From Escherichia coli (GTDB lineage Bacteria; Pseudomonadota; Gammaproteobacteria; Enterobacterales; Enterobacteriaceae): a stretch of 64,000 bases of DNA. Below, piece by piece: positions 3,717-31,336 of the stretch. The stretch lies in the NCBI RefSeq assembly GCF_001677475.2, contig NZ_CP015229.1; one strand, given 5' to 3'. The position numbers were made by a program, and so were the translations under genes. Below the pieces are notes generated by a model. That model ran no database searches. It was not told the origin of the DNA and saw nothing but the letters and a program-made list of their open reading frames with translations. Every line of letters begins with the position of its first letter. Within the stretch, counting starts at the first letter, position 1.

Positions 3717-4468
3717 GCAATATCCATCACCTTGAACATAGCCTGCGTAAACTACGCCTGACACGAGTTGGAGCTGAATGGCACGCTCTGGAAAAACGAG
3801 CGCTGGCAGAAGGCTGGACACCATCGCGCTATCTTCTGACGCTATGCAATGAAGAACTCCTGTGGCGCGAGAGTGAAAAACTGCGTCGTTATAAAAAGGA
3901 GGCCCGGTTGCCAGTTGCCAAAACGCTGAGCGAATACGACTTCAGTCAGGTGCCGGAACTGAATGGAGCTCAGTTCCGGCAACTCTGTGAAACGACAGAC
4001 TGGGTTGATGCAGGAGAAAACGTTCTGCTGTTCGGAGCCAGCGGGTTGGGGAAAAGCCATCTGGCGGCAGCGATCGTGGATGGCGTAGTAGGTCAGGGCT
4101 ACCGGGCCCGGTTCTACAGCGCAGGAGAGCTGTTGCAGGAACTACGTAAAGCCAGAGCTCAGTTGAAACTGAATGAGCTGCTACTGAAACTGGATCGCTA
4201 CCGGGTGATAGTGGTGGATGATCTTGGCTATGTCAAACGCGATAGTGCCGAAACGGGTGTGCTGTTCGAGTTAATAGCGCATCGCTATGAACGTGGGAGC
4301 CTGGTGATAACCAGTAACCATCCGTTCAGCATGTGGGGCAGCATCTTCGTGGATGAGACTATGGCGGTGGCTGCGGCAGACAGGCTGCTCCATCACGGAT
4401 ATATGTTCGAACTGAAAGGGGAAAGCTACAGGAAAAAGACAGCGAAGGCAGTAACAAGCGCGACTTGA
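3713..4468 (+). CDS. istB: IS21-family helper ATPase IstB
   Basis: 251 aa with Walker A GASGLGKSHLA and Walker B VIVVDDLGY; start overlaps istA stop. Confidence 0.85.
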   Translation: MSNIHHLEHSLRKLRLTRVGAEWHALEKRALAEGWTPSRYLLTLCNEELLWRESEKLRRYKKEARLPVAKTLSEYDFSQVPELNGAQFRQLCETTDWVDAGENVLLFGASGLGKSHLAAAIVDGVVGQGYRARFYSAGELLQELRKARAQLKLNELLLKLDRYRVIVVDDLGYVKRDSAETGVLFELIAHRYERGSLVITSNHPFSMWGSIFVDETMAVAAADRLLHHGYMFELKGESYRKKTAKAVTSAT

Positions 4469-4621
4469 TGTCGCCCTGAAGGGTGCGGCCAGTATAGTTG
4501 GCGCGAGTCGGCAAAACTAGTTGACGTCTAATACCTGCAGTCTTCACAGGCGTTACAAAATTTACAACGTCAACTGGGATTAATAGCCGGAGGTGAGGCT
4601 GGAAAACGGGCTGCAACGGCA

Positions 4622-5482
4622 GTGGGTCTCCGTTGCAGTGCAGATACTCATCTTCGCAGGGTTATCAATACCCCAGAGACGAAACTGTCAGGCTCATCCC
4701 ATGTCGGTATTGATGAGTGGGCGTGGCATCGGGGCCACCGTTACGGTACGTTAATCGTCAATCTTGATACTCACCGTCCCCTCGTCCTGCTTCCCGGCCG
4801 TGATCAGCGTACGCTGGCGACCTGGTTCAGAAAATATCCGGAAATACAGGTTGTCTCACGTGATCGCAGTGGAGTCTATACGACAACAGCACGTGTAGGT
4901 GCACCTCAGGCCAGACAGGTGGCCGATCGATGGCACCTGCTAAAAAATATTGGCGATGCGCCTGAACAAATGATGTACAGACATATACCTCAGATACGTC
5001 TTGTTGCCAGTGAGTTGTCACCAAAGAAATCACCTGATCCAGAACCATCTGTGCCTGCAGCATCGCTCCGTCGTCCGGAACACCTAAAACAGCAAACCCG
5101 CAAAAAACGGCATCAGCATTGGACAGAGGTTATGGCCCTGCATAACAAGGGATGTAGTTTCAGGGAAATATCCCGTATTACAGGCCTGTCGCGTGTGACA
5201 GTCAGTCGCTGGGTACGTTCAGGAACATTCCCTGAAATGTCAACCCGACCTCCAAAGCGAGGGCTTCTGGAACCATGGCGGGAGTGGTTAAAAGAGCAAC
5301 GAGAAAGTGGTAATTATAACGCCAGCCAGATATGGCGGGAAATGGTGGCCCGGGAGTTTACAGGCAGTGAAACCATTGTCAGGGATGCTGTTGCCAAATG
5401 GCGTAAAGGCTGGATCCCACCGGTTACTACTGCCGTCAGACTTCCTTCAGTGTCCCGGGTAAGCCGCTGGTTGATGCCCTAG
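4622..5482 (+). pseudogene. ISL3-family transposase, catalytic-core fragment (continuation of the 1810-2139 fragment)
   Basis: HVGIDEWAWHRGHRYGTLIVNLDTHRPLVLLPGRDQRTL...VVSRDRSGVY...ADRWHLLKN fits the ISL3 DDE-domain pattern as recalled; further C-terminal fragment in another frame at 5531-5683. Confidence 0.6.
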
Positions 5483-17706: not shown

Positions 17707-18873
17707 GTGAGGTGTATTGTGGGAAAGGAACTGGATGATATCTGCACCAGCTGTCCGTATATCGATGCTGTAAAACGGCACAAACAACAGCTCGGTGCCA
17801 TAGAGGAATATACACAGTGGTTAAAAAAAGAACCACGGGCATCTTATTTTTTTCTGTTCCGGCTGTATACCCGCATTCACAATACATTTTTCCCCCAAAA
17901 GCAACAACTCCCGTTCACTCCCGGTGGCACTCACTGCCCGGAACCTGATGTCACCCTTCGGGACTTAACGCTTTCCCCGGGCTACCACAGTGATTATGCC
18001 CCTCACCCCATTCCGGAGATGGACAGTTCTATTGTTGTTCCCCCCACTAATGAAAACACCTCGCCTCCGGAAGATACTCCCGACAACACTCCGGCCGGAG
18101 GCAATACCGGACAAGCGGAAAAGACCAGAAACGCAGGACTCACACCCATTCCTGAAAAACGTTCAGGAATGCCCCCGGAACATCTGCGGTTTGCCATGGG
18201 TTTTCCATCGCAACCGAAGATTGCCGGTCCCAGAGAAAAGCCGATGCGCACCGTGCATCCGGATAATATCTACCGTGAAATTATATGGTTCTGCTCCAGT
18301 TACCTGCTGAAATCCGGACCAGAGGCTACGAGGACGATTATCAACTCAGTATTCTCTGAATGGGCCAGCATAAACAATGATTACCCCTCCCCCTTTTCGT
18401 GGGTGGACAGCAGGGACAGTGAACAGTGTGACTGGTTATGGAACGCCATGCAGGTCCGGTGTGTGGGAACCCCGCTGAATCCCCTTACCCCGGAGCAGAA
18501 ATACTGGTTCGCCTGCGCCACATTTGATAACTGGGAAGGCTGGAATGAGCAACAGGTACAGTTTTTACTGGAAAGTAATCCCAGACGAAACAGAGCGAAG
18601 TTTGCGATAAACTCCTTCCAGACTCTCGGGGTTAAACAGCATAAAGCAGTTCTTCTTGATGAACTGAAAAGTGCCCGGGAGCAACAAAAAAGGCGTGATG
18701 AACGTGCTGATGGTTCCGTCCCGCTGAAACTGTCCGGAAAAATCCACAAACAGCTTGAAAGTGTTGCCCGAAGTCGTGGTGTCCCCCCCAAAAAACTGCT
18801 GAATGAAATGATTGAGCAGGCGTACCGGGATTTGGTGGCAACCAGGCAGAACAGCCAGATCGATTCCAGATAA
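17707..18873 (+). CDS. Hypothetical protein with Pro/Thr-rich segment and C-terminal ribbon-helix-helix-like tail
   Basis: 388-codon ORF from GTG (first in-frame ATG at 18019); low-complexity PPTNENTSPPEDTPDNTP; C-terminal LKLSGKIHKQLESVARSRGVPPKKLLNEMIEQAY resembles an RHH/CopG-type motif. Confidence 0.4.
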   Translation: MRCIVGKELDDICTSCPYIDAVKRHKQQLGAIEEYTQWLKKEPRASYFFLFRLYTRIHNTFFPQKQQLPFTPGGTHCPEPDVTLRDLTLSPGYHSDYAPHPIPEMDSSIVVPPTNENTSPPEDTPDNTPAGGNTGQAEKTRNAGLTPIPEKRSGMPPEHLRFAMGFPSQPKIAGPREKPMRTVHPDNIYREIIWFCSSYLLKSGPEATRTIINSVFSEWASINNDYPSPFSWVDSRDSEQCDWLWNAMQVRCVGTPLNPLTPEQKYWFACATFDNWEGWNEQQVQFLLESNPRRNRAKFAINSFQTLGVKQHKAVLLDELKSAREQQKRRDERADGSVPLKLSGKIHKQLESVARSRGVPPKKLLNEMIEQAYRDLVATRQNSQIDSR

Positions 18874-18956
18874 TTTCAGACATATATTATCTCCGTGAAT
18901 CCCCCGCCACCTTTCCGGTGTGCGGGGTTTTGTCTTTTTTCACCGGGAATACATGT

Positions 18957-19829
18957 ATGAATCCGTCTGATGCCATTGAGGCAATTGAAAAACCACTTTC
19001 TTCCCTGCCTTACTCGCTTTCCCGTCACATCCTGGAACATCTGCGCAAACTCACCAGTCACGAACCCGTGATTGGCATTATGGGTAAAAGCGGGGCCGGT
19101 AAATCCTCACTCTGTAATGCGCTGTTTCAGGGGGAGGTCACACCGGTCAGTGATGTTCACGCCGGCACCCGGGAAGTGAAGCGTTTCCGTCTGAGTGGAC
19201 ACGGTCACAGCATGGTTATCACTGACCTGCCCGGGGTGGGCGAGAGCCGGGAGCGGGATGCAGAGTATGAAGCTCTGTACCGTGACATTCTGCCCGAACT
19301 GGACCTGGTACTGTGGCTGATTAAAACCGATGACCGTGCCCTGTCTGTGGATGAGTATTTCTGGCGACACATCCTGCACCGGGGACATCAGCAGGTGCTG
19401 TTTGTGGTGACGCAGGCCGATAAAACGGAGCCCTGCCATGAATGGGATATGGCCGGTATTCAGCCTTCTCCCGCACAGGCACAGAACATTCGCGAAAAAA
19501 CGGAGGCGGTATTCCGTCTGTTCCGGCCCGTACATCCGGTTGTGGCCGTATCGGCCCGCACCGGCTGGGAACTGGATACGCTGGTCAGTGCGCTCATGAC
19601 AGCGCTTCCCGACCATGCCGCCAGTCCCCTGATGACCCGCCTGCAGGACGAGCTGCGCACGGAATCTGTCCGCGCTCAGGCCCGTGAACAGTTTACCGGT
19701 GCGGTGGACCGGATATTTGACACGGCGGAGAGCGTCTGTATTGCCTCTGTTGCATGCACGGTTCTGCGTGCCGTCCGTGACACGGTGGTCTCTGTTGCCC
19801 GCGCTGTATGGAACTGGATTTTCTTCTGA
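18957..19829 (+). CDS. YeeP/YkfA/YfjP-family small GTPase
   Basis: P-loop GIMGKSGAGKSS, switch-like DLPGVGE and G4-like region; sits immediately upstream of the Ag43 gene as in CP4-44-type modules. Confidence 0.7.
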   Translation: MNPSDAIEAIEKPLSSLPYSLSRHILEHLRKLTSHEPVIGIMGKSGAGKSSLCNALFQGEVTPVSDVHAGTREVKRFRLSGHGHSMVITDLPGVGESRERDAEYEALYRDILPELDLVLWLIKTDDRALSVDEYFWRHILHRGHQQVLFVVTQADKTEPCHEWDMAGIQPSPAQAQNIREKTEAVFRLFRPVHPVVAVSARTGWELDTLVSALMTALPDHAASPLMTRLQDELRTESVRAQAREQFTGAVDRIFDTAESVCIASVACTVLRAVRDTVVSVARAVWNWIFF

Positions 19830-19944
19830 ACACTCTGCCAGGGGAAATGCCTGATTACATTGCGTTAACCAACTGAAAACATGACACAAACACCTCATAC
19901 CCCTCCTGTTTCTCTTGCGTGGCCGCCTTGTTATTAATAGAATA

Positions 19945-19988
19945 AAACGATCGATAAAACAGGTATCGATCGTTACTATCGATCGTTT
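19945..19988. promoter_or_regulatory. Ag43 phase-variation switch (three GATC sites, OxyR-binding region)
   Basis: GATC at 19949-19952, 19968-19971 and 19981-19984 within AACGATCGATAAAACAGGTATCGATCGTTACTATCGATCG, about 220 bp upstream of the Ag43 start codon. Confidence 0.7.
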
Positions 19989-20201
19989 ATAGTGGTTAAT
20001 GGCCTGCGAAAAGGCAGCTGAATCTCTTCATCATGCAGAACGGAATTGCACACAACGGACTGATACTTCTCTGGCGGATGAGAGAGGGGAAGCATTTATG
20101 TCCGGGAAAAACCACTTTATCTGACCATGCTGTTTTGTACCTGCCGGTATCCACATTTGTGGGTACCGGCTTTTTTATTCACCCTCTGTAAGGAAAAGCT
20201 G

Positions 20202-23048
20202 ATGAAACGACATCTGAACACCAGCTACAGGCTGGTATGGAATCACATTACAGGCACCCTGGTGGTGGCTTCCGAACTGGCACGCTCACGGGGAAAAGGC
20301 GCCGGTGTGGCGGTTGCTCTGTCTCTTGCTGCTGTCACGTCAGTCCCGGCACTGGCTGCTGACACGGTTGTACAGGCGGGAGAAACCGTGAACGGCGGAA
20401 CACTGACAAATCATGACAACCAGATTGTCCTCGGTACGGCCAACGGAATGACCATCAGTACCGGTCTGGAGTATGGGCCGGATAACGAGGCCAATACCGG
20501 CGGGCAATGGATACAAAATGGCGGTATCGCCAACAACACTACTGTCACCGGTGGTGGTCTTCAGAGAGTGAATGCCGGAGGAAGCGTTTCAGACACGGTT
20601 ATCAGTGCCGGAGGCGGACAGAGCCTTCAGGGGCAGGCAGTGAACACCACTCTGAACGGCGGTGAGCAGTGGGTACATGAAGGCGGGATTGCAACGGGTA
20701 CCGTCATTAATGAGAAGGGCTGGCAGGCCGTCAAATCCGGCGCAATGGCAACCGACACGGTTGTGAATACCGGCGCGGAAGGGGGACCGGATGCAGAAAA
20801 TGGTGATACCGGGCAGTTTGTTCGCGGAAATGCCGTACGTACCACCATCAATAAAAATGGTCGTCAGATTGTGGCTGCTGAAGGAACGGCAAATACCACT
20901 GTGGTTTATGCCGGCGGCGACCAGACTGTACATGGTCACGCACTGGATACCACGCTGAATGGGGGGTACCTGTATGTGCACAACGGCGGTACGGCGTCTG
21001 GCACTGTTGTAAACAGTGACGGCTGGCAGATTATCAAGGAAGGTGGTCTGGCGGATTTCACCACCGTTAACCAGAAAGGCAAACTGCAGGTGAACGCCGG
21101 TGGTACAGCCACGAATGTCACCCTGACGCAGGGAGGCGCACTGGTCACCAGTACGGCGGCAACCGTCACCGGCAGCAACCGTCTGGGCAATTTCACTGTG
21201 GAAAACGGTAATGCTGACGGTGTTGTTCTGGAGTCCGGTGGTCGCCTGGATGTACTGGAGGGCCATTCAGCGCAGAAAACATTGGTGGATGACGGCGCTA
21301 TCCTGGCAGTGTCTGCCGGTGGTAAGGCAACAGATGTCACCATGACATCCGGTGGTGCCCTGATTGCAGACAGTGGTGCCACTGTTGAGGGGACCAATGC
21401 CAGCGGTAAGTTCAGTATTGATGGCATATCCGGTCAGGCCAGCGGCCTGCTGCTGGAAAATGGCGGCAGCTTTACGGTTAATGCCGGGGGACAGGCTGGC
21501 AACACCACTGTCGGACATCGTGGAACACTGACGCTGGCTGCCGGGGGAAGTCTGAGTGGAAGAACACAGCTCAGTAAAGGCGCCAGTATGGTACTGAATG
21601 GTGATGTGGTCAGTACCGGCGATATTGTTAACGCAGGAGAGATTCACTTTGATAATCAGACGACACAGGATGCCGTACTGAGCCGTGCTGTTGCAAAAGG
21701 CGACTCCCCGGTAACGTTCCATAAACTGACCACCAGTAACCTCACCGGTCAGGGTGGCACCATCAATATGCGTGTTCGCCTTGATGGCAGCAATGCCTCT
21801 GACCAGCTGGTGATTAATGGTGGTCAGGCAACCGGCAAAACCTGGCTTGCGTTTACAAATGTCGGAAACAGTAACCTCGGGGTGGCAACCTCCGGACAGG
21901 GTATCCGGGTTGTGGATGCACAGAATGGTGCCACCACAGAAGAAGGTGCGTTTGCCCTGAGTCGCCCGCTTCAGGCCGGCGCCTTTAACTACACCCTGAA
22001 CCGTGACAGCGATGAAGACTGGTACCTGCGCAGTGAAAATGCTTATCGTGCTGAAGTCCCCCTGTATGCCTCCATGCTGACACAGGCAATGGACTATGAC
22101 CGGATTCTGGCAGGCTCCCGCAGCCATCAGACTGGTGTAAGCGGTGAAAATAACAGCGTCCGTCTCAGCATTCAGGGCGGTCATCTCTGTCACGATAACA
22201 ACGGCGGTATTGCCCGTGGAGCCACGCCGGAAAGCAGCGGCAGCTATGGCTTCGTCCGTCTGGAGGGTGACCTGCTCAGAACAGAGGTTGCCGGTATGTC
22301 TCTGACGACAGGGGTGTATGGTGCTGCAGGCCATTCTTCCGTTGATGTTAAGGATGATGACGGCTCCCGTGCCGGCACGGTCCGGGATGATGCCGACAGT
22401 CTGGGCGGATACCTGAATCTGGTACACACGTCCTCCGGCCTGTGGGCTGACATTGTGGCACAGGGAACCCGCCACAGCATGAAAGCGTCATCGGACAATA
22501 ACGACTTCCGCGCCCGGGGCTGGGGCTGGCTGGGCTCACTGGAAACTGGTCTGCCCTTCAGTATCACTGACAACCTGATGCTGGAGCCACAACTGCAGTA
22601 CACCTGGCAGGGGCTCTCCCTGGATGACGGCCAGGATAACGCCGGTTATGTGAAGTTCGGGCATGGCAGTGCACAACATGTGCGTGCCGGCTTCCGTCTG
22701 GGCAGCCACAACGATATGACCTTTGGCGAAGGCACCTCATCCCGTGACACTCTGCGCGACAGTGCAAAACACCGTGTGAGTGAACTGCCGGTGAACTGGT
22801 GGGTACAGCCTTCTGTTATCCGCACTTTCAGCTCCCGGGGTGACATGAGCATGGGTACAGCCGCAGCCGGCAGTAACATGACGTTCTCACCCTCACAGAA
22901 TGGCACATCACTGGACCTGCAGGCCGGACTGGAAGCCCGTGTCCGGGAAAATATCACCCTGGGCGTTCAGGCCGGTTATGCCCACAGTGTCAGCGGCAAC
23001 AGCGCTGAAGGCTATAACGGTCAGGCCACGCTGAATGTGACCTTCTGA
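20202..23048 (+). CDS. flu: Antigen 43 self-associating autotransporter
   Basis: MKRHLNTSYRLVWNHITGTLVVASELARSRGKGAGVAVALSLAAVTSVPALAADTVV N-terminus, repetitive beta-helical passenger, C-terminal beta-barrel ending ...GYNGQATLNVTF; 948 aa from the ATG at 20202. Confidence 0.9.
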   Translation: MKRHLNTSYRLVWNHITGTLVVASELARSRGKGAGVAVALSLAAVTSVPALAADTVVQAGETVNGGTLTNHDNQIVLGTANGMTISTGLEYGPDNEANTGGQWIQNGGIANNTTVTGGGLQRVNAGGSVSDTVISAGGGQSLQGQAVNTTLNGGEQWVHEGGIATGTVINEKGWQAVKSGAMATDTVVNTGAEGGPDAENGDTGQFVRGNAVRTTINKNGRQIVAAEGTANTTVVYAGGDQTVHGHALDTTLNGGYLYVHNGGTASGTVVNSDGWQIIKEGGLADFTTVNQKGKLQVNAGGTATNVTLTQGGALVTSTAATVTGSNRLGNFTVENGNADGVVLESGGRLDVLEGHSAQKTLVDDGAILAVSAGGKATDVTMTSGGALIADSGATVEGTNASGKFSIDGISGQASGLLLENGGSFTVNAGGQAGNTTVGHRGTLTLAAGGSLSGRTQLSKGASMVLNGDVVSTGDIVNAGEIHFDNQTTQDAVLSRAVAKGDSPVTFHKLTTSNLTGQGGTINMRVRLDGSNASDQLVINGGQATGKTWLAFTNVGNSNLGVATSGQGIRVVDAQNGATTEEGAFALSRPLQAGAFNYTLNRDSDEDWYLRSENAYRAEVPLYASMLTQAMDYDRILAGSRSHQTGVSGENNSVRLSIQGGHLCHDNNGGIARGATPESSGSYGFVRLEGDLLRTEVAGMSLTTGVYGAAGHSSVDVKDDDGSRAGTVRDDADSLGGYLNLVHTSSGLWADIVAQGTRHSMKASSDNNDFRARGWGWLGSLETGLPFSITDNLMLEPQLQYTWQGLSLDDGQDNAGYVKFGHGSAQHVRAGFRLGSHNDMTFGEGTSSRDTLRDSAKHRVSELPVNWWVQPSVIRTFSSRGDMSMGTAAAGSNMTFSPSQNGTSLDLQAGLEARVRENITLGVQAGYAHSVSGNSAEGYNGQATLNVTF

Positions 23049-23168
23049 CAGAACCATCGCCTCTTTGTGGTCCCGGTCATCATGATCGGGACCCGGACCG
23101 GCGCAACGGATATTCAACGCCACATTCGCTGGCATTAACAATAACATGATATTCATCACGGAGTGACT

Positions 23169-25685
23169 ATGTTACAGATAGTCGGCGCGCTGATCCTGCT
23201 GATAGCAGGATTTGCCATTCTTCGCCTTTTGTTCAGAGCATTAATCAGCACGGCTTCTGTGCTGGCAGGGCTTATATTGCTGTGTCTGTTCGGCCCGGCC
23301 TTACTGGCTGGCTATATCACCGAACGCATAACACGGTTGTTCCATATTCGCTGGCTGGCAGGCGTATTTCTGACGATTGCCGGAATGATCATCAGCTTCA
23401 TGTGGGGACTTGATGGTAAACATATCGCGCTGGAGGCTCACACCTTTGACTCTGTGAAATTTATTCTGACCACCGCTCTCGCCGGTGGTCTGCTGGCTGT
23501 TCCCCTGCAGATCAAAAACATTCAGCAGAACGGGATCACACCAGAAGATATCAGCAAGGAAATTAACGGGTATTACTGCTGTTTTTATACTGCCTTTTTC
23601 CTTATGGCATGTTCTGCATGCGCACCATTGATCGCGTTACAGTACGATATTTCACCGTCACTGATGTGGTGGGGCGGGTTGTTGTACTGGCTGGCTGCAT
23701 TAGTGACGCTGCTATGGGCGGCCAGCCAAATCCAGGCGCTGAAAAAACTGACCTGTGCCATCAGCCAGACACTGGAAGAACAACCGGTGCTCAACAGTAA
23801 ATCGTGGCTGACCAGTTTGCAAAACGATTACAGCCTTCCTGACTCACTGACGGAGCGCATCTGGCTGACGCTCATTTCTCAACGGATTTCCCGGGGAGAG
23901 CTGAGGGAATTTGAACTGGCAGACGGAAACTGGTTACTGAACAATGCCTGGTATGAAAGAAACATGGCAGGTTTTAACGAACAGTTGAAAGAGAACCTGT
24001 CATTCACACCTGATGAACTGAAAACGCTCTTCCGGAACCGCCTGAATTTATCACCGGAAGCGAATGACGATTTTCTCGATCGTTGCCTGGACGGCGGTGA
24101 CTGGTATCCCTTTTCAGAAGGTCGCCGTTTTGTATCATTCCATCACGTGGATGAGCTTCGTATCTGTGCCTCCTGCGGGCTGACAGAAGTACATCATGCC
24201 CCGGAAAATCATAAGCCGGATCCGGAATGGTACTGCTCCTCTCTTTGTCGCGAAACAGAAACACTGTGTCAGGAAATTTATGAACGCCCTTACAACTGTT
24301 TTATTTCCGATGCAACGGCGAATGGTCTGATTCTCATGAAACTGCCGGAAACCTGGAGTACAAATGAGAAAATGTTTGCTTCCGGAGGGCAGGGACATGG
24401 GTTTGCCGCTGAACGGGGAAACCATATTGTCGACAGAGTCCGTCTGAAAAACGCACGGATCCTCGGTGATAATAATGCCAGAAATGGAGCAGACAGACTG
24501 GTCAGCGGAACAGAAATCCAGACGAAATATTGTTCAACTGCAGCCCGTAGCGTCGGTGCGGCATTCGACGGACAAAACGGACAGTATCGTTACATGGGAA
24601 ATAATGGCCCCATGCAACTGGAAGTCCCCCGTGATCAGTATGCCGGCGCTGTTGAAACCATGAGGAATAAGATCCGCGAAGGTAAAGTACCCGGTGTAAC
24701 CGATCCCGCAGAAGCGTCCCGGCTGATTCGTCGGGGACATCTGACTTATACTCAGGCCCGTAATATCACCCGGTTCGGGACCATCGAATCGGTCACTTAT
24801 GATATTGCCGAGGGTTCGGTTGTCAGTCTGGCGGCCGGAGGGATCAGTTTTGCACTGACGGCATCGGTCTTCTGGCTCAGCACCAGCGATCGCGATGCAG
24901 CCCTGCAGACAGCTGCTGTCCAGGCAGGAAAAACCTTCACCCGCACACTGGCTGTCTACATCACAACCCAGCAACTCCACCGGCTCAGTGTTGTTCAGGG
25001 TATGCTGAAGCACATTGATTTTTCGACTGCCAGCCCGACTGTCCGACTGGCTCTTCAGAAGGGGACCGGTGCAGGAAATATCAGTGCCCTGAACAAAGTA
25101 ATGAAGGGTACGCTGGTGACATCTCTGGCACTGGTAGCTGTCACAACCGGCCCTGACATGATCAAAATGTTGCGGGGACGGATCTCCGGTGCGCAGTTCA
25201 TCAGGAATCTTGCCGTGGCATCTTCCGGTGTGGCAGGTGGTGCTGTCGGGTCAGTGGCGGGCGGAATACTGTTCAGTCCACTGGGACCATTTGGTGCACT
25301 GACAGGGCGTGTGGTTGGCGGTGTTCTGGGGGGAATGATTGCCTCCGCTGTATCAGGAAAAATTGCCGGAGCGCTGGTTGAAGAAGATCGCGTCAAAATT
25401 CTGGCAATGATTCAGGAGCAGGTGACATGGCTTGCCGGCAGTTTCCTGCTGACCGGACATGAGATTGAAAATCTGAACGAGAATCTGGCCCGTGTTATCG
25501 ATCAGAATGCTCTGGAGATCATTTTCGCCGCCGGTATACAACAACGGGCCGCGACCAATATGTTAATCAAACCACTGGTGGTCAGTATCATCAGGCAACG
25601 CCCCGTCATGGAATATGATGCATCCCATCTCGGCAATATGGTTAACCGACTGGAAGAAGCATTACCCCCGGAGTTACCGGCATAA
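23169..25685 (+). CDS. YeeR-like inner-membrane protein (uncharacterised)
   Basis: About 838 aa; several N-terminal hydrophobic helices, central Cys cluster CASCGLTEVHH...YCSSLC, Gly-rich C-terminal helices (GVAGGAVGSVAGGILF...VVGGVLGGMIASAVSG); position right after flu as for yeeR. Confidence 0.5.
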   Translation: MLQIVGALILLIAGFAILRLLFRALISTASVLAGLILLCLFGPALLAGYITERITRLFHIRWLAGVFLTIAGMIISFMWGLDGKHIALEAHTFDSVKFILTTALAGGLLAVPLQIKNIQQNGITPEDISKEINGYYCCFYTAFFLMACSACAPLIALQYDISPSLMWWGGLLYWLAALVTLLWAASQIQALKKLTCAISQTLEEQPVLNSKSWLTSLQNDYSLPDSLTERIWLTLISQRISRGELREFELADGNWLLNNAWYERNMAGFNEQLKENLSFTPDELKTLFRNRLNLSPEANDDFLDRCLDGGDWYPFSEGRRFVSFHHVDELRICASCGLTEVHHAPENHKPDPEWYCSSLCRETETLCQEIYERPYNCFISDATANGLILMKLPETWSTNEKMFASGGQGHGFAAERGNHIVDRVRLKNARILGDNNARNGADRLVSGTEIQTKYCSTAARSVGAAFDGQNGQYRYMGNNGPMQLEVPRDQYAGAVETMRNKIREGKVPGVTDPAEASRLIRRGHLTYTQARNITRFGTIESVTYDIAEGSVVSLAAGGISFALTASVFWLSTSDRDAALQTAAVQAGKTFTRTLAVYITTQQLHRLSVVQGMLKHIDFSTASPTVRLALQKGTGAGNISALNKVMKGTLVTSLALVAVTTGPDMIKMLRGRISGAQFIRNLAVASSGVAGGAVGSVAGGILFSPLGPFGALTGRVVGGVLGGMIASAVSGKIAGALVEEDRVKILAMIQEQVTWLAGSFLLTGHEIENLNENLARVIDQNALEIIFAAGIQQRAATNMLIKPLVVSIIRQRPVMEYDASHLGNMVNRLEEALPPELPA

Positions 25686-26294: not shown

Positions 26295-26528
26295 ATGCCG
26301 GGTTACACAGAGTATGTTCTGGCTGAAGGATCTTTCTCATACGGGCAGGCGGTTGCTGTCATAACAGCTTACCGCAATGTGTTTATCCAGAATGACCCGG
26401 GAATGCATTTCCGTTGGGTTATCCGCAACGCGGAAGGTCAGCGACGCTGGAGCTACCGGAATTCTGAACCCGATGCCGGAAAGGTGCTTAATACGCAGCT
26501 CGCCAGTGACGGTCTTCTCAGACAATAA
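26295..26528 (+). CDS. DUF905-type small protein (YkfF-like)
   Basis: 77 aa [30 protein letters not shown]...; AGGAG RBS; typical member of this island module as recalled. Confidence 0.5.
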
Positions 26529-26627
26529 ACGTCATTCATTTCACCCATCAGGCCGCGTCTTCTCCGGGAGACGTGGCTTTTTCATTTATTACACCAGTAA
26601 ATCTTAACCACCGATAAGGAGCAAATT

Positions 26628-27446
26628 ATGCGACTAGCCAGTCGTTTTGGTTATGCGAACCAGATACGCCGTGACCGTCCGCTGACACACGAAGAACTGA
26701 TGCACTATGTTCCCGGTATTTTCGGTGAAGACCGGCATACTTCCCGCAGTAAACGATATGCGTACATTCCCACTATCACCGTACTGGAAAGCCTGCAGCA
26801 GGAAGGTTTTCAGCCATTCTTCGCCTGCCAGACCCGCGTGCGCGACCCGGGCCGCCGGGGATACACCAAACACATGCTGCGTCTGCGCCGTGACGGGGAG
26901 ATAAACGGACAACATGTCCCTGAAATCATCCTGCTGAACTCCCATGACGGTACCTCCAGCTACCAGATGCTGCCGGGTTACTTCAGGTTCGTCTGCCAGA
27001 ACGGATGCGTCTGTGGTCAGTCTCTGGGGGAAGTGCGTGTTCCACACCGGGGAAATGTAGTGGAGAAAGTTATCGAAGGGGCTTACGAGGTGGTGGGCGT
27101 GTTTGACCGGATAGAGGAGAAGCGTGATGCCATGCAGTCTCTGGTTCTGCCGCCACCGGCACGCCAGGCGCTGGCACAGGCGGCACTGACTTACCGTTAT
27201 GGTGACGAACATCAGCCGGTCACCACCGCTGACATTCTGACACCACGACGCAGGGAGGATTACGGTAAGGACCTGTGGAGCGCATATCAGACCATCCAGG
27301 AGAATATGCTGAAAGGCGGAATTTCCGGTCGCAGTGCCAGAGGAAAACGTATCCACACCCGTGCCATTCACAGCATCGACACGGACATTAAGCTCAATCG
27401 CGCATTGTGGGTGATGGCAGAAACACTGCTGAAGAGTATGCGCTGA
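26628..27446 (+). CDS. DUF932-type protein (YafZ/YfjQ-like)
   Basis: 272 aa; family resemblance to YafZ/YfjQ from cryptic-prophage modules, from memory. Confidence 0.55.
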   Translation: MRLASRFGYANQIRRDRPLTHEELMHYVPGIFGEDRHTSRSKRYAYIPTITVLESLQQEGFQPFFACQTRVRDPGRRGYTKHMLRLRRDGEINGQHVPEIILLNSHDGTSSYQMLPGYFRFVCQNGCVCGQSLGEVRVPHRGNVVEKVIEGAYEVVGVFDRIEEKRDAMQSLVLPPPARQALAQAALTYRYGDEHQPVTTADILTPRRREDYGKDLWSAYQTIQENMLKGGISGRSARGKRIHTRAIHSIDTDIKLNRALWVMAETLLKSMR

Positions 27447-27536
27447 TGCCTTTTCCCTGAAAGCGCAGTTCTGACTCATGTCCGTCCCTGCCCCGCGACT
27501 TCTTCCATTCATTTACTTTTTATAAGGAATAATCTC

Positions 27537-28022
27537 ATGACAACCGTTTCGCATAATTCCACCACACCTTCTGTTTCCGTAACCGCTGTATCAGAGAATA
27601 ACCCGCCTCAACTGGTTGCCACCCTCGTCCCTGATGAACAGCGCATCAGCTTCTGGCCGCAGCACTTTGGCCTCATTCCACAGTGGGTGACCCTGGAGCC
27701 CCGTGTCTTCGGCTGGATGGACCGTCTGTGCGAAGACTACTGCGGTGGTATCTGGAATCTGTACACCCTGAACAACGGCGGGGCATTTATGGCACCCGAA
27801 CCGGATGACGATGATGACGAAGCATGGGTACTGTTCAATGCCATGAACGGTAACCGCGCTGAAATGAGCCCGGAAGCCGCCGGCATTGCTGCCTGTCTGA
27901 TGACGTACAGTCATCATGCCTGTCGTACGGAGAATTATGCCATGACAGTTCATTATTACCGGCTGCGGGATTACGCCCTGCAGCATCCGGAATGCAGCGC
28001 CATTATGCGCATCATCGACTGA
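27537..28022 (+). CDS. Antirestriction protein (KlcA/ArdB-like; YfjX/YafX type)
   Basis: 161 aa with acidic stretch PEPDDDDDEAW and conserved position immediately upstream of the RadC-like gene. Confidence 0.6.
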   Translation: MTTVSHNSTTPSVSVTAVSENNPPQLVATLVPDEQRISFWPQHFGLIPQWVTLEPRVFGWMDRLCEDYCGGIWNLYTLNNGGAFMAPEPDDDDDEAWVLFNAMNGNRAEMSPEAAGIAACLMTYSHHACRTENYAMTVHYYRLRDYALQHPECSAIMRIID

Positions 28023-28037
28023 ATGGAGGCAGGGACA

Positions 28038-28514
28038 ATGCAGCAGCTTTCCTTTCTGCCCGGAGAGATGACGCCCGGCGAGCGCAGTCTCATTCTGCGG
28101 GCCCTGAAAACCCTGGACCGCCATCTTCATGAACCCGGCGTGGCCTTCACCTCCACCCGTGCAGCACGGGAATGGCTGATTCTGAACATGGCGGGACTGG
28201 AGCGTGAAGAGTTCCGGGTGCTGTATCTGAACAACCAGAATCAGCTGATTGCCGGTGAAACCCTCTTCACCGGCACCATCAACCGCACGGAAGTCCATCC
28301 CCAGGAAGTGATTAAACGCGCCCTGTATCACAATGCCGCTGCTGTGGTGCTGGCACACAATCACCCGTCCGGTGAAGTCACCCCCAGCAAGGCAGACCGC
28401 CTTATCACGGAACGTCTGGTACAGGCACTGGGCCTGGTGGATATCCGGGTGCCGGACCATCTGATAGTCGGTGGCAGCCAGGTTTTCTCCTTTGCCGAAC
28501 ACGGTCTGCTTTAA
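28038..28514 (+). CDS. RadC-like JAB/MPN-domain protein (YeeS/YfjY/YkfG type)
   Basis: JAMM-like motif HNHPSGEVTPSKAD; GGAGG RBS 8 nt upstream of the ATG at 28038. Confidence 0.7.
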   Translation: MQQLSFLPGEMTPGERSLILRALKTLDRHLHEPGVAFTSTRAAREWLILNMAGLEREEFRVLYLNNQNQLIAGETLFTGTINRTEVHPQEVIKRALYHNAAAVVLAHNHPSGEVTPSKADRLITERLVQALGLVDIRVPDHLIVGGSQVFSFAEHGLL

Positions 28515-28582
28515 CCCGTCACCGTCACAACTACATCACACTTGTTTTCACTTTTATCTTCTGTCTTCAGAGGTATCCCATC

Positions 28583-28804
28583 ATGAAAATTATCACCCGT
28601 GGTGAAGCCATGCGTATTCACCAACAGCATCCTGCATCCCGTCTTTTTCCGTTCTGTACCGGTAAGTACCGCTGGCACGGCAGCGCTGAAGCGTATACCG
28701 GTCGTGAAGTGCAGGATATTCCCGGCGTTCTTGCCGTGTTTGCTGAACGCCGTAAGGACAGTTTTGGCCCGTATGTCCGGCTGATGAGCGTCACCCTGAA
28801 CTAA
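28583..28804 (+). CDS. DUF987 protein (YeeT-like)
   Basis: 73 aa; position between the RadC-like and antitoxin genes as in CP4-44. Confidence 0.6.
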   Translation: MKIITRGEAMRIHQQHPASRLFPFCTGKYRWHGSAEAYTGREVQDIPGVLAVFAERRKDSFGPYVRLMSVTLN

Positions 28805-28882
28805 GTCAGGAAGGGCATTCTGATGAGCCGAATTATCGCCACCATTGAACTATTCTTAACTGATTTCTGTGAGGACTTTATC

Positions 28883-29251
28883 GTGTCAGACACACTGCCC
28901 GGGACAACGCATCCCGACAACAACAACGACCGCCCCTGGTGGGGGCTACCCTGCACCGTGACGCCCTGTTTCGGTGCACGTCTGGTGCAGGAGGGTAACC
29001 GGTTGCATTACCTTGCAGACCGCGCCGGTATCAGAGGCCGGTTCAGCGACGCGGATTCGTACCACCTGGACCAGGCCTTTCCGCTGCTGATGAAACAACT
29101 GGAGCTCATGCTCACCAGCGGTGAACTGAATCCCCGCCATCAGCATACCGTGACACTGTATGCGAAGGGGCTGACCTGCGAAGCCGACACCTTCGGCTCC
29201 TGTGATTACGTTTATCTGGCTGTTTATCCGACGCCCGAAACGAAAAAGTAA
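28883..29251 (+). CDS. cbeA: CbeA (YeeU)-type antitoxin of a type IV toxin-antitoxin pair
   Basis: 122 aa from GTG at 28883: [51 protein letters not shown]...; directly upstream of the CbtA-like gene. Confidence 0.75.
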
Positions 29252-29340
29252 ACCACCGGAATAACCCTCTGCTCCGGCCTGGTGTTTTCACCACGCCACT
29301 GTCCCATTTTTTATCTCTGCATATCAGGAAAATCTTCAGT

Positions 29341-29715
29341 ATGAAAACATTACCCGACACGCATGTACGGGAGGCATCGAGCTGCCCGTCTCCCGTCACC
29401 ATCTGGCAGACACTGCTCACCCGGTTACTGGACCAGCATTACAGCCTTACGCTGAATGACACACCGTTCGCGGATGAACGTGTGATTGAGCAGCATATTG
29501 AGGCAGGCATTTCACTGTGTGATGCGGTGAATTTTCTCGTGGAAAAATACGCGCTGGTGCGTACCGACCAGCCGGGATTCAACACTTGTCCCCGCTCTCA
29601 GTTAATAAACAGTATTGATATCCTCCGGGCTCGCCGGGCGACCGGCCTGATGACCCGCGACAATTACAGAACAGTAAATAACATTACCCTTGGTAAGCAT
29701 CCGGAGAAACGATGA
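29341..29715 (+). CDS. cbtA: CbtA (YeeV)-type toxin (cytoskeleton-targeting)
   Basis: 124 aa [70 protein letters not shown]...; classic CbtA family sequence. Confidence 0.8.
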
Positions 29716-30200
29716 AACTGGCCCTGATGCTGGAAGCCGACAGCATTAATGTGCAGGCACTGAACATGGGGCGAATTGTCGTTGACGTCGATGGTGTTAA
29801 TCTCACTGAACTGATTAACAAGGTCGCTGAAAACGGTTATTCACTCCGCGTGGTGGAGGAATCCGACCAACAGTCAACCTGCACACTACCACCGTTTGCA
29901 ACCCTTGCCGGCATACGCTGCAGTACCGCACATATCACGGAAAAGGATAACGCCTGGCTGTACTCGCTGTCACACCAGACCAGTGACTTCGGTGAATCAG
30001 AATGGATTCATTTCACAGGTAGCGGATATCTGTTACGTACCGATGCGTGGTCATATCCGGTTCTGCGGCTTAAACGCCTGGGGCTGTCAAAAACGTTCCG
30101 TCGTCTGGTTGTCACACTCATCCAACGTTATGGCGTCAGTCTCATTCATCTGGATGCCAGCGCTGAATGTCTGCCGGACCTGCCCACTTTCGACTGGTAA
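29712..30200 (+). CDS. YeeW-like hypothetical protein
   Basis: 162 aa; start overlaps cbtA stop; GGAG RBS. Confidence 0.45.
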
Positions 30201-30211
30201 CCAGGAACAAC

Positions 30212-30409
30212 ATGAAATCATTAACCACGGAAACCGCACTGGATATTCTGATTGCGTGGCTACAGGACAATATCGACTGCGAATCGGGAATTATCTTTGA
30301 CAACGATGAGGATAGAACGGATTCGGCAGCACTGTTGCCCTGTATCGAACAGGCCAGAGAGGATGTCCGTACCCTGCGTCAGCTGCAGTTTCTGCAACAG
30401 AACCGGTGA
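30212..30409 (+). CDS. Small hypothetical protein
   Basis: 65 aa from ATG at 30212 with AGGA upstream; followed by a terminator hairpin. Confidence 0.35.
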   Translation: MKSLTTETALDILIAWLQDNIDCESGIIFDNDEDRTDSAALLPCIEQAREDVRTLRQLQFLQQNR

Positions 30410-30438
30410 GTCTTACTCACCAGACTTCATTCCACTGA

Positions 30439-30470
30439 CGCCAGCCTGAATACGGCTGGCGTTTTCGTTT
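30439..30470 (+). terminator. Rho-independent terminator-like hairpin
   Basis: CGCCAGCC-tgaatac-GGCTGGCG followed by TTTTCGTTT. Confidence 0.5.
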
Positions 30471-30493
30471 ATCTGCAAAAAGGAATATCGATT

Positions 30494-31336
30494 ATGTCTG
30501 AAATCACAGCCTCTCGTCCGGAAGTGGTCAACGGGCATACGGACGTTATCTGCTCAACCAGTATCCGCCACATTCTGGCTGTACGAAAGAGTACATTGCT
30601 GCAAATCGACACACTTATCCGACAACTGGCTGAAATATCAGCAATGACAGAAAGTATTAGAGGTAAAACGGCTCTGGACTGGGCCATGAAACAGGATTTT
30701 CGCTGCGGTTGCTGGCTGATGGAGAAACCGGAAACCACAATGAAAGCCATCACACGCAATCTTGATCGCGAACTCTGGCGTGATCTGATGCAACGTTCCG
30801 GGATGCTGAGTCTGATGGATGCGCAGACCCGGGACACATGGTACAGGTCACTGGAATATGATAATTTTCCGGAAATCAGCGAAGCGAACATTCTGAGCAC
30901 ATTTGAACAACTGCACCAGAACAAAGATGAAGTGTTTGAACGGGGAGTGATCAACGTCTTCAAAGGGCTGAGCTGGGATTACAAAACCAACTCACCCTGT
31001 AAATTTGGCAGTAAAATTATCGTCAACAATCTGGTGAGGTGGGACCAGTGGGGATTTCATCTTATCAGTGGAATGCAGGCAGATCGCCTGGCTGACCTGG
31101 AAAGAATGTTGCATCTGCTCAGAGGAAAACCGATCCCCGACAACCGGGGGAATATCACCATTAATCTGGATGACCACATACAGTCCGTTCAGGGTAAAGG
31201 ACGCTATGAAGATGAGATGTTCATCATTAAATACTTTAAGAAGGGATCTGCACACATCACTTTCAAAAGGCTGGAGCTGATTGACAGAATTAACGATATA
31301 ATAGCCAGGCACTTTCCTTCTGTGCTCTCAGCCTGA
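30494..31336 (+). CDS. DUF4942-like hypothetical protein at the island terminus
   Basis: 280 aa; AGGA RBS; last gene before the tRNA-Phe-derived junction; family call from memory. Confidence 0.45.
   Translation: MSEITASRPEVVNGHTDVICSTSIRHILAVRKSTLLQIDTLIRQLAEISAMTESIRGKTALDWAMKQDFRCGCWLMEKPETTMKAITRNLDRELWRDLMQRSGMLSLMDAQTRDTWYRSLEYDNFPEISEANILSTFEQLHQNKDEVFERGVINVFKGLSWDYKTNSPCKFGSKIIVNNLVRWDQWGFHLISGMQADRLADLERMLHLLRGKPIPDNRGNITINLDDHIQSVQGKGRYEDEMFIIKYFKKGSAHITFKRLELIDRINDIIARHFPSVLSA

Follow-up and report, generated by a model that had tools for sequence, protein, structure and literature searches.

The window, a 64,000-nt (64-kb) stretch of an E. coli chromosome presented on one strand, carries an intact gene for an Ag43/Cah-family autotransporter (flu) with a yeeP-like GTPase gene upstream, and the intergenic region between the two holds the regulatory features listed in Table 1. 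The Ag43 ORF is covered over residues 1-948 of 948 by NCBIfam NF033177 (1970 bits against a cut-off of 1200), contains the Pfam domains ESPR, AIDA, AC_1 and Autotransporter (beta-barrel), and shares 71% identity with K-12 Flu; among solved passenger domains, 7KO9 and 7KOH come nearest. The yeeP-like ORF matches Pfam MMR_HSR1 (5.7e-15) and carries the annotation 'GTPase family protein' in RefSeq loci identical to or syntenic with this one. The island in which both genes lie adjoins yghD and the gsp type II secretion genes and has the usual module of DUF932, antirestriction, RadC-like, cbeA and cbtA genes. Two further ORFs, 23163-25685 (840 aa) and 17707-18873 (388 aa), have no Pfam or NCBIfam match and are hypothetical in the syntenic RefSeq loci. 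A tblastn search of the 64-kb window with Dam and OxyR, using approximate query sequences, gave no match; dam and oxyR map elsewhere on E. coli chromosomes.

Table 1. Coordinates of the genes and predicted regulatory elements of the yeeP-flu region, numbered from the first letter of the window
Feature	Position	Strand	Remarks
yeeP-like GTPase gene, 5' of the switch	18918-19829	+	GTG at 18918; the annotated homologue of 873 nt corresponds to 18957-19829
Putative -35 hexamer TTGCGT	19915-19920	+	placed by position and by homology to K-12 TTGTCC; 17 nt 5' of the -10
Predicted OxyR half-site 1, ATAGAATAAAACGAT	19937-19951	+	8/10 to ATAGnTnnnAnCTAT; overlaps the -10 hexamer, with GATC-I in its right arm
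Putative -10 hexamer TAGAAT	19938-19943	+	same in K-12; near-invariant in 66 distinct alleles of both types
GATC-I	19949-19952	+	G at 19949 is the putative transcription start
agn43 leader (IsrC/IS102 RNA)	19949-20176	+	+1 through the last T of the terminator T-run, ~228 nt
GATC-II	19968-19971	+	overlaps the left arm of OxyR half-site 2
Predicted OxyR half-site 2, ATCGTTACTATCGAT	19969-19983	+	8/10; arms are GATC-II and GATC-III, 13 bp apart
GATC-III	19981-19984	+	overlaps the right arm of OxyR half-site 2
Upstream ATG in frame with flu	20127-20129	+	25 codons 5' of the main start and 13 nt 5' of the terminator stem
Intrinsic terminator, GCCGGTATCCAC-ATTT-GTGGGTACCGGC plus T6	20143-20176	+	ends 25 nt before the flu ATG
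Shine-Dalgarno AAGGA of the main start	20190-20194	+	read in the sequence; invariant in alignments
Ag43/Cah-family autotransporter gene, intact	20202-23048	+	948 aa plus stop

The original prediction, made from the sequence alone, was that an intact Dam/OxyR-type phase-variation switch of Ag43 lies upstream of flu, marked by three GATC sites. These sites are present where it had placed them and span 36 bp, and the string that it quoted around them was found at 19946-19985. Its distance to flu of about 220 bp is a fair figure, since the ATG lies 217 nt from the end of GATC-III and 253 nt from the start of GATC-I, but the start codon itself, read in the sequence and in agreement with homologous RefSeq annotation, is 20202 and not 20203. 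The start-to-start spacing of the three sites, 19 and 13 bp, is identical to that of the K-12 agn43 (flu) operator in an ungapped comparison, with the K-12 sites (positions 1818, 1837 and 1850 of locus L001) in register with those of the window. A MAFFT alignment of the two sequences introduced a spurious 13-nt gap in the operator and was discarded in favour of the ungapped comparison.

The same register extends to the promoter. The AATAGAATAAAACGATC block, comprising the -10 hexamer and +1, is the same in the window and in K-12, as is the order TAGAAT-AAAAC-GATC, and the K-12 isrC feature in RefSeq begins at the G of the homologous GATC-I. Transcription of agn43 reportedly starts at the G of the upstream GATC, with an OxyR footprint from -16 to +42. 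As a simple sigma-70 scan called no promoter in this region, the promoter was placed by homology, which points to a sigma-70 promoter with its +1 at the G of GATC-I. The putative -35 matches the consensus weakly (3/6), and its TTG is unchanged in 66 distinct alleles.

For OxyR, half-sites were scored against the consensus ATAGnTnnnAnCTAT taken from PMC2909390. Half-site 1 and half-site 2 separated by N17 together score 16/20, the sole score of at least 14 in the 64-kb window, where the next best is 13. The canonical contiguous 37-mer (N7) reached 13/20 and was equalled at three other positions in the window; being non-discriminating, it was replaced by the N17 arrangement. Wider spacing of the half-sites is reportedly that described for reduced OxyR. 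The same point has been made for the gtr switch (PMC2909390). An OxyR recognition sequence is thus predicted over all three GATCs.

A tight GATC triple by itself is not rare in the 64-kb window, and clustering alone is no argument for a switch. GATC is not over-represented window-wide (236 sites, 249 +/- 14 expected), and triples within 36 bp or less occur six times against ~1.0 expected, with a maximum of five in 300 first-order Markov simulations. The remaining five triples, which fall at 57883-57907, 45957-45998, 46101-46133 and 62407-62452, all read as coding; their hosts are ORF 57233-58063, the sslE-like ORF 43572-48149 and, near 62340-62520, a small ACP-like ORF absent from the ORF list. 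These triples look codon-driven and not regulatory. What marks the operator cluster as non-random is its K-12 agn43 spacing and flanks, its isolation, and its retention in the large majority of natural alleles, as described below. Between 18861 and 23083, GATC and TCGA are each present solely in the operator, as three GATCs and three overlapping TCGAs.

The intergenic region (373 bp) was matched in 4017 of 5426 complete E. coli genomes, with at least 80% coverage in 3445 of them and up to seven copies per genome; the copy in RefSeq strain YP3 is 100% identical. To sample alleles with an anchor independent of the switch, metagenome contigs were scanned for the 22-nt terminator sequence, which yielded 117 loci with enough upstream DNA. 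All three GATCs are in exact register in 110 of these 117 alleles. The other seven are point mutants of a single GATC, namely GATC-II (L137, L151, L199 and L225), GATC-I (L146 and L227) or GATC-III (L178), in which the site has become AATC, TATC or GATG and the remaining operator is unchanged. Assembly error on low-coverage contigs is possible for these loci, and we regard the seven as candidate natural variants with altered or locked switching. Elsewhere the switch is lost altogether. In the pair L130 (STEC2018-553) and L131 (PigCaeca_2), one example has an IS3-family element about 90-190 nt upstream of the Ag43/Cah ATG, and the other has an unrelated GATC-free upstream region with only the 3' half of the terminator left. 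Because alleles with a lost GATC (7/117) or a lost switch exist in nature, the label 'intact' given to this copy is informative.

The 110 alleles with all three GATCs fall into two operator types, for which we coined the labels A (as in the window; 79 loci) and B (as in K-12; 31 loci). Type A is the commonest natural sequence variant in E. coli. Across 66 distinct sequences of both types, little or no variation is seen in columns -13 to +8, +16 to +24 and +30 to +36, columns +9 to +15 are type-specific, and columns +25 to +29, the centre of half-site 2, vary freely; the GATC columns of this table are invariant by construction, the unbiased figure being the 110/117 given above. Conserved half-site arms combined with a variable centre and a variable tract between the half-sites are the pattern expected for ATAGnTnnnAnCTAT contacts. 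Types A and B are alike only in the core of the promoter and in the arms of the OxyR half-sites. When the window (19904-20009) is set against the 66 distinct alleles, the hotspots of variation are the half-site 2 centre (19973-19977) and the promoter spacer (19922-19935), a pattern that recalls the 'structured promoter variability' described for Salmonella opvAB (PMC12902445).

The small RNA that was suspected in the intergenic region is borne out. Rfam RF00124 (IS102/IsrC) matches 19947-20183 on the + strand over model positions 1-206 of 206, with 74.8 bits against a gathering score of 46 and an E value of 5.5e-12. A second Rfam match, to HIV_PBS inside flu, was rejected as chance (21 bits against a threshold of 61). 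The RNA is the agn43 leader and not a separate gene, since it starts at GATC-I and ends at the terminator hairpin, and since only the terminator and GATC-box hairpins are conserved. The literature likewise treats IsrC RNA as the agn43 leader. A dCas13a screen in which repression of IsrC changed a phenotype describes its mechanism as undisclosed or unknown (PMC10783499). The 'sRNA' is then the prematurely terminated leader, and its output should be phase-variable too.

The terminator stem has 12 pairs, eight of them G-C, with a loop of 4 in the terminator scan; it is found in both the MFE and the centroid fold and is conserved across types A and B. Consensus folding of the A and B leaders gave the terminator and a 5' hairpin with palindromic GATC-box arms as the conserved structure, with almost no covariation support elsewhere. 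An antiterminator structure is not proposed, because covariation support beyond these two hairpins was not meaningful. The ORF that opens at the upstream ATG runs from 20127 to 23048. Every one of the 77 type-A leaders examined has an upstream ATG in frame with flu, 70 of them at 25 codons and 7 at 56; of 11 type-B leaders, 8 have one, at 52 codons. Translation from the upstream in-frame start reportedly raises expression, and a ribosome at 20127 could block formation of the terminator hairpin.

Taken together, the region is very probably an ordinary agn43-type Dam/OxyR ON/OFF switch before an Ag43-family adhesin gene. The classical arrangement that had been claimed is upheld at the level of its sequence elements, all of which are present and in K-12 register (GATCs, -10 and +1, half-sites, leader with terminator, and an intact ORF). 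Such a switch is already known, and nothing is added here to the mechanism itself. In the window, the sigma-70 promoter (-35 TTGCGT, -10 TAGAAT) would start transcription at 19949, and an OxyR tetramer would bind across the two half-sites, whose arms carry GATC-I, -II and -III. In the OFF state, bound OxyR would cover the -10 and the start site, repress transcription and keep Dam off the three GATCs. Should Dam reach and methylate the sites before OxyR binds, in the interval that follows replication, OxyR would be excluded and the promoter would fire, giving the ON state. Each round of replication would reopen the competition between Dam and OxyR, and each state would be self-maintaining, so that states are inherited and flips are rare. 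The leader would form a second gate: with a terminator 25 nt before the flu ATG in a leader of 253 nt, many transcripts would end as an IsrC-like RNA of ~228 nt, and flu would be expressed only by read-through of the leader terminator. The in-frame ATG, 13 nt before the terminator stem, may allow a ribosome to prevent the hairpin.

OxyR binding, methylation sensitivity, switching and antitermination at this copy are predicted by homology, and so is phase variation of the type A variant. At agn43, repression is by OxyR, which has a single site, and activation by Dam; expression is locked OFF in a dam mutant and locked ON when dam is overexpressed (PMC2909390, PMC13337833, PMC3764049). Six unmethylated GATCs were reported upstream of two agn43 genes of CFT073 (PMC4752239), and both CFT073 operators are type B in the loci that we checked. 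The doubt that we retain about the switch comes from the fact that the K-12 genetics and the CFT073 unmethylated GATCs both concern type B. Our search for a published direct experiment on a type A operator found none, the K-12 genetics and CFT073 methylation data being on type B; a search for methylome evidence for type A likewise found none, the ST131, O111 and qDNAmod papers mentioning Ag43 as background only. The EAEC 042 genome paper infers phase variation for type A. In annotation, a complete switch can be noted for this Ag43/Cah copy, as it cannot for some natural alleles (IS insertion, replaced upstream region or single GATC knockout). With a complete switch present, expression, aggregation, biofilm and methylome data of the strain should be read with ON/OFF heterogeneity in mind.

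It is unlikely, though conceivable, that all elements are present and the switch of this variant or strain is nonetheless in effect locked, or heavily biased towards OFF or towards ON, instead of flipping at the classical ~1e-3 per generation. The diverged tract between the half-sites, the weak -35 or efficient termination in the leader could each be the cause. Positions +9 to +15 and those past +37 do set type A apart from type B, on which the experiments were done. The recurrent variation at +25 to +29 and in the spacer from -27 to -14, together with the 7/117 single GATC knockouts, suggests natural tuning; in Salmonella, an analogous structured promoter variation alters opvAB phase variation (PMC12902445). 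However, the half-site arms, the -10 and the three GATCs of the window are intact and match the consensus of the 66 distinct alleles, and the standing of this variant as the commonest in E. coli argues for function. We find it quite improbable that the GATC boxes chiefly control IsrC/IS102 as an independent small RNA with its own function in trans or cis, with regulation of Ag43 being secondary. The Rfam match spanning the whole model, the strong terminator before flu, the annotation of K-12 isrC as a separate ncRNA and the phenotype of IsrC repression in the dCas13a screen by a mechanism described as unknown (PMC10783499) would fit such an RNA. Against it, its 5' end and strand are those of the flu leader, conservation between the types is confined to the terminator and the 5' GATC-box hairpins with almost no covariation elsewhere, and the in-frame upstream ATG and read-through into flu are conserved, in line with the leader view of the literature.

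The cluster might also be read by another methylation-sensitive factor in place of OxyR, such as Lrp/PapI as at pap, Fur as at sci1, HdfR as at std, or SeqA. Several Dam-dependent switches do use non-OxyR proteins, and seqA mutations alter the switching bias of Ag43 (PMC13337833), but later work gives the sequestration to OxyR and not SeqA (PMC13337833), the conserved columns fit the OxyR half-site consensus, and the pap signature of GATC boxes ~102 bp apart is absent, the nearest other GATCs being >1 kb away. A factor other than OxyR is, on balance, very improbable here. That the cluster arose by chance and has no regulatory role has a probability close to nil. Six triples of 36 bp or less in one window would be in its favour, yet these are the only GATCs in 4.2 kb, they share the K-12 operator spacing and flanks, the OxyR half-site match over them is unique in the window, and 110/117 independently anchored alleles conserve the sites; the conservation data effectively refute a chance origin. 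The Dam/OxyR switch of the agn43 type is thus the reading that we retain.

Three side observations seem worth the attention of specialists: the almost complete lack of GATC and TCGA in Ag43 ORFs, the two operator types, and an agn43-like operator before a CBASS-like cassette. As for the first, flu of the window contains no GATC against 6.3 +/- 1.9 expected from synonymous-codon shuffles (zero was reached in 0/1000), K-12 flu contains none against 8.7 expected, and the yeeP-like ORF none against 3.1. Pooled over 75 complete Ag43 ORFs (loci L132-L251), GATC occurs 4 times against ~537 expected and TCGA once against ~346, in alleles that are closely related within classes, so that the counts are not phylogenetically independent. 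Among the other tetramers of the same composition, those without TAG all reach at least 0.36 of expectation, and depletion is seen also in CTAG (0.03) and TAGC (0.07). At the codon level, Ile in every nnG+Ile pair is encoded by ATT or ATA, and GAC is the codon of every Asp that precedes a codon starting with C. GATC and TCGA appear to have been actively purged from yeeP-flu at synonymous sites, a depletion of which a limited search of the open literature found no mention for Ag43.

The module at 26333-30763 (DUF932, antirestriction, RadC-like JAB, DUF987, cbeA, cbtA, DUF5983 and DUF957) runs for 4.4 kb without GATC, where 17 would be expected from composition and ~10.5 from synonymous shuffles of six ORFs; TCGA is not depleted in it. 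K-12 yeeS-yeeW (positions 9-1835 of L252) is likewise without GATC. The 840-aa ORF at 23163-25685, between flu and this module, has 18 GATCs against 15.5 expected and is not depleted, which points to a different origin. We are doubtful that this 'Dam-site desert' is part of the switching mechanism and not just avoidance of restriction or MutH sites by a mobile element. If it were, the lack of sites would keep processive Dam and SeqA tracts away from the operator and leave OxyR able to win the post-replication race.

A loose pattern, CGATC-N14-CGATCG-N7-CGATCG, run over species genomes gave almost only chance matches (GC-rich, cyanobacterial) among the matches listed, with one useful exception in Citrobacter. 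In Citrobacter werkmanii (L007, 7270-4708, minus strand), an operator with agn43-like architecture has -35 TTGTCA, an 18-nt spacer and -10 TAGTTT, followed by ATAGTTTTTATCGAT-N17-ATCGTTTTTATCGAT, which scores 17/20, and its GATC spacing is 19 and 13. A four-gene cassette follows ~60 nt downstream, encoding a 186-aa membrane protein, a 131-aa hypothetical protein, a SLATT 2TM effector and a SMODS cyclase, the last two recognized by PADLOC at 6e-72 and 1e-115, respectively, and the cassette looks CBASS-like. A homologous operator with the first two cassette genes was found in 174 of 5426 E. coli genomes. In E. coli NCTC86 (L256, ~4080-5151) and SW071618 (L257, 3001-5784), the three GATCs are conserved on alignment and the flanks vary. 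This makes it a candidate Dam/OxyR phase-variable cassette.

Compared with known switches, the window resembles K-12 agn43 of the CP4-44 prophage in its half-site arms (ATCG-N7-CGAT), terminator, Shine-Dalgarno sequence and first codons, in the yeeP-like gene upstream and in the GATC-free flu ORF. It differs in the +9 to +15 tract, which is AAACAGG in the window and TCTATTT in K-12 (seven consecutive differences), in the sequence past +37, and in the -35 (TTGCGT against TTGTCC). The leader measures 253 nt in the window and 222 nt in K-12, the in-frame upstream ATG lies at 25 codons against 52, the protein has 948 aa against 1039 aa, and yeeP is intact in the window whereas it is a pseudogene in K-12. 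The cah gene of EHEC O157 and other 948-aa Ag43/Cah alleles have the type A operator with almost all promoter and operator columns identical, an intergenic region 90-100% identical, and the same protein class with 7KO9 as the nearest solved structure. Within this group, the half-site 2 centre is TTACT, TTTAT, TTACC or CTGAT, and the cah alleles of O157 and AH01 have a divergent leader stretch at about +125 to +180 and no ATG at 25 codons.

Farther afield, the gtr genes of Salmonella/P22 and opvAB share with the window OxyR half-sites with a GATC pair 13 bp apart, at which methylation and OxyR binding are mutually exclusive (PMC2909390). In contrast to the single predicted repressor site over +1 and the three GATCs of the window, these systems have four GATCs in two pairs, their alternative OxyR sites lie upstream of the promoter, and OxyR both activates and represses (PMC2909390); the operator of the window is not of the gtr/opvAB type. 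The pap family is alike in that heritable ON and OFF states arise from competition between Dam and a DNA-binding protein. However, pap uses Lrp/PapI and two GATC boxes ~102 bp apart, neither of which is found in the window, so that the operator is not of the pap type either, and the genes that flank the operator here encode a GTPase and Ag43.
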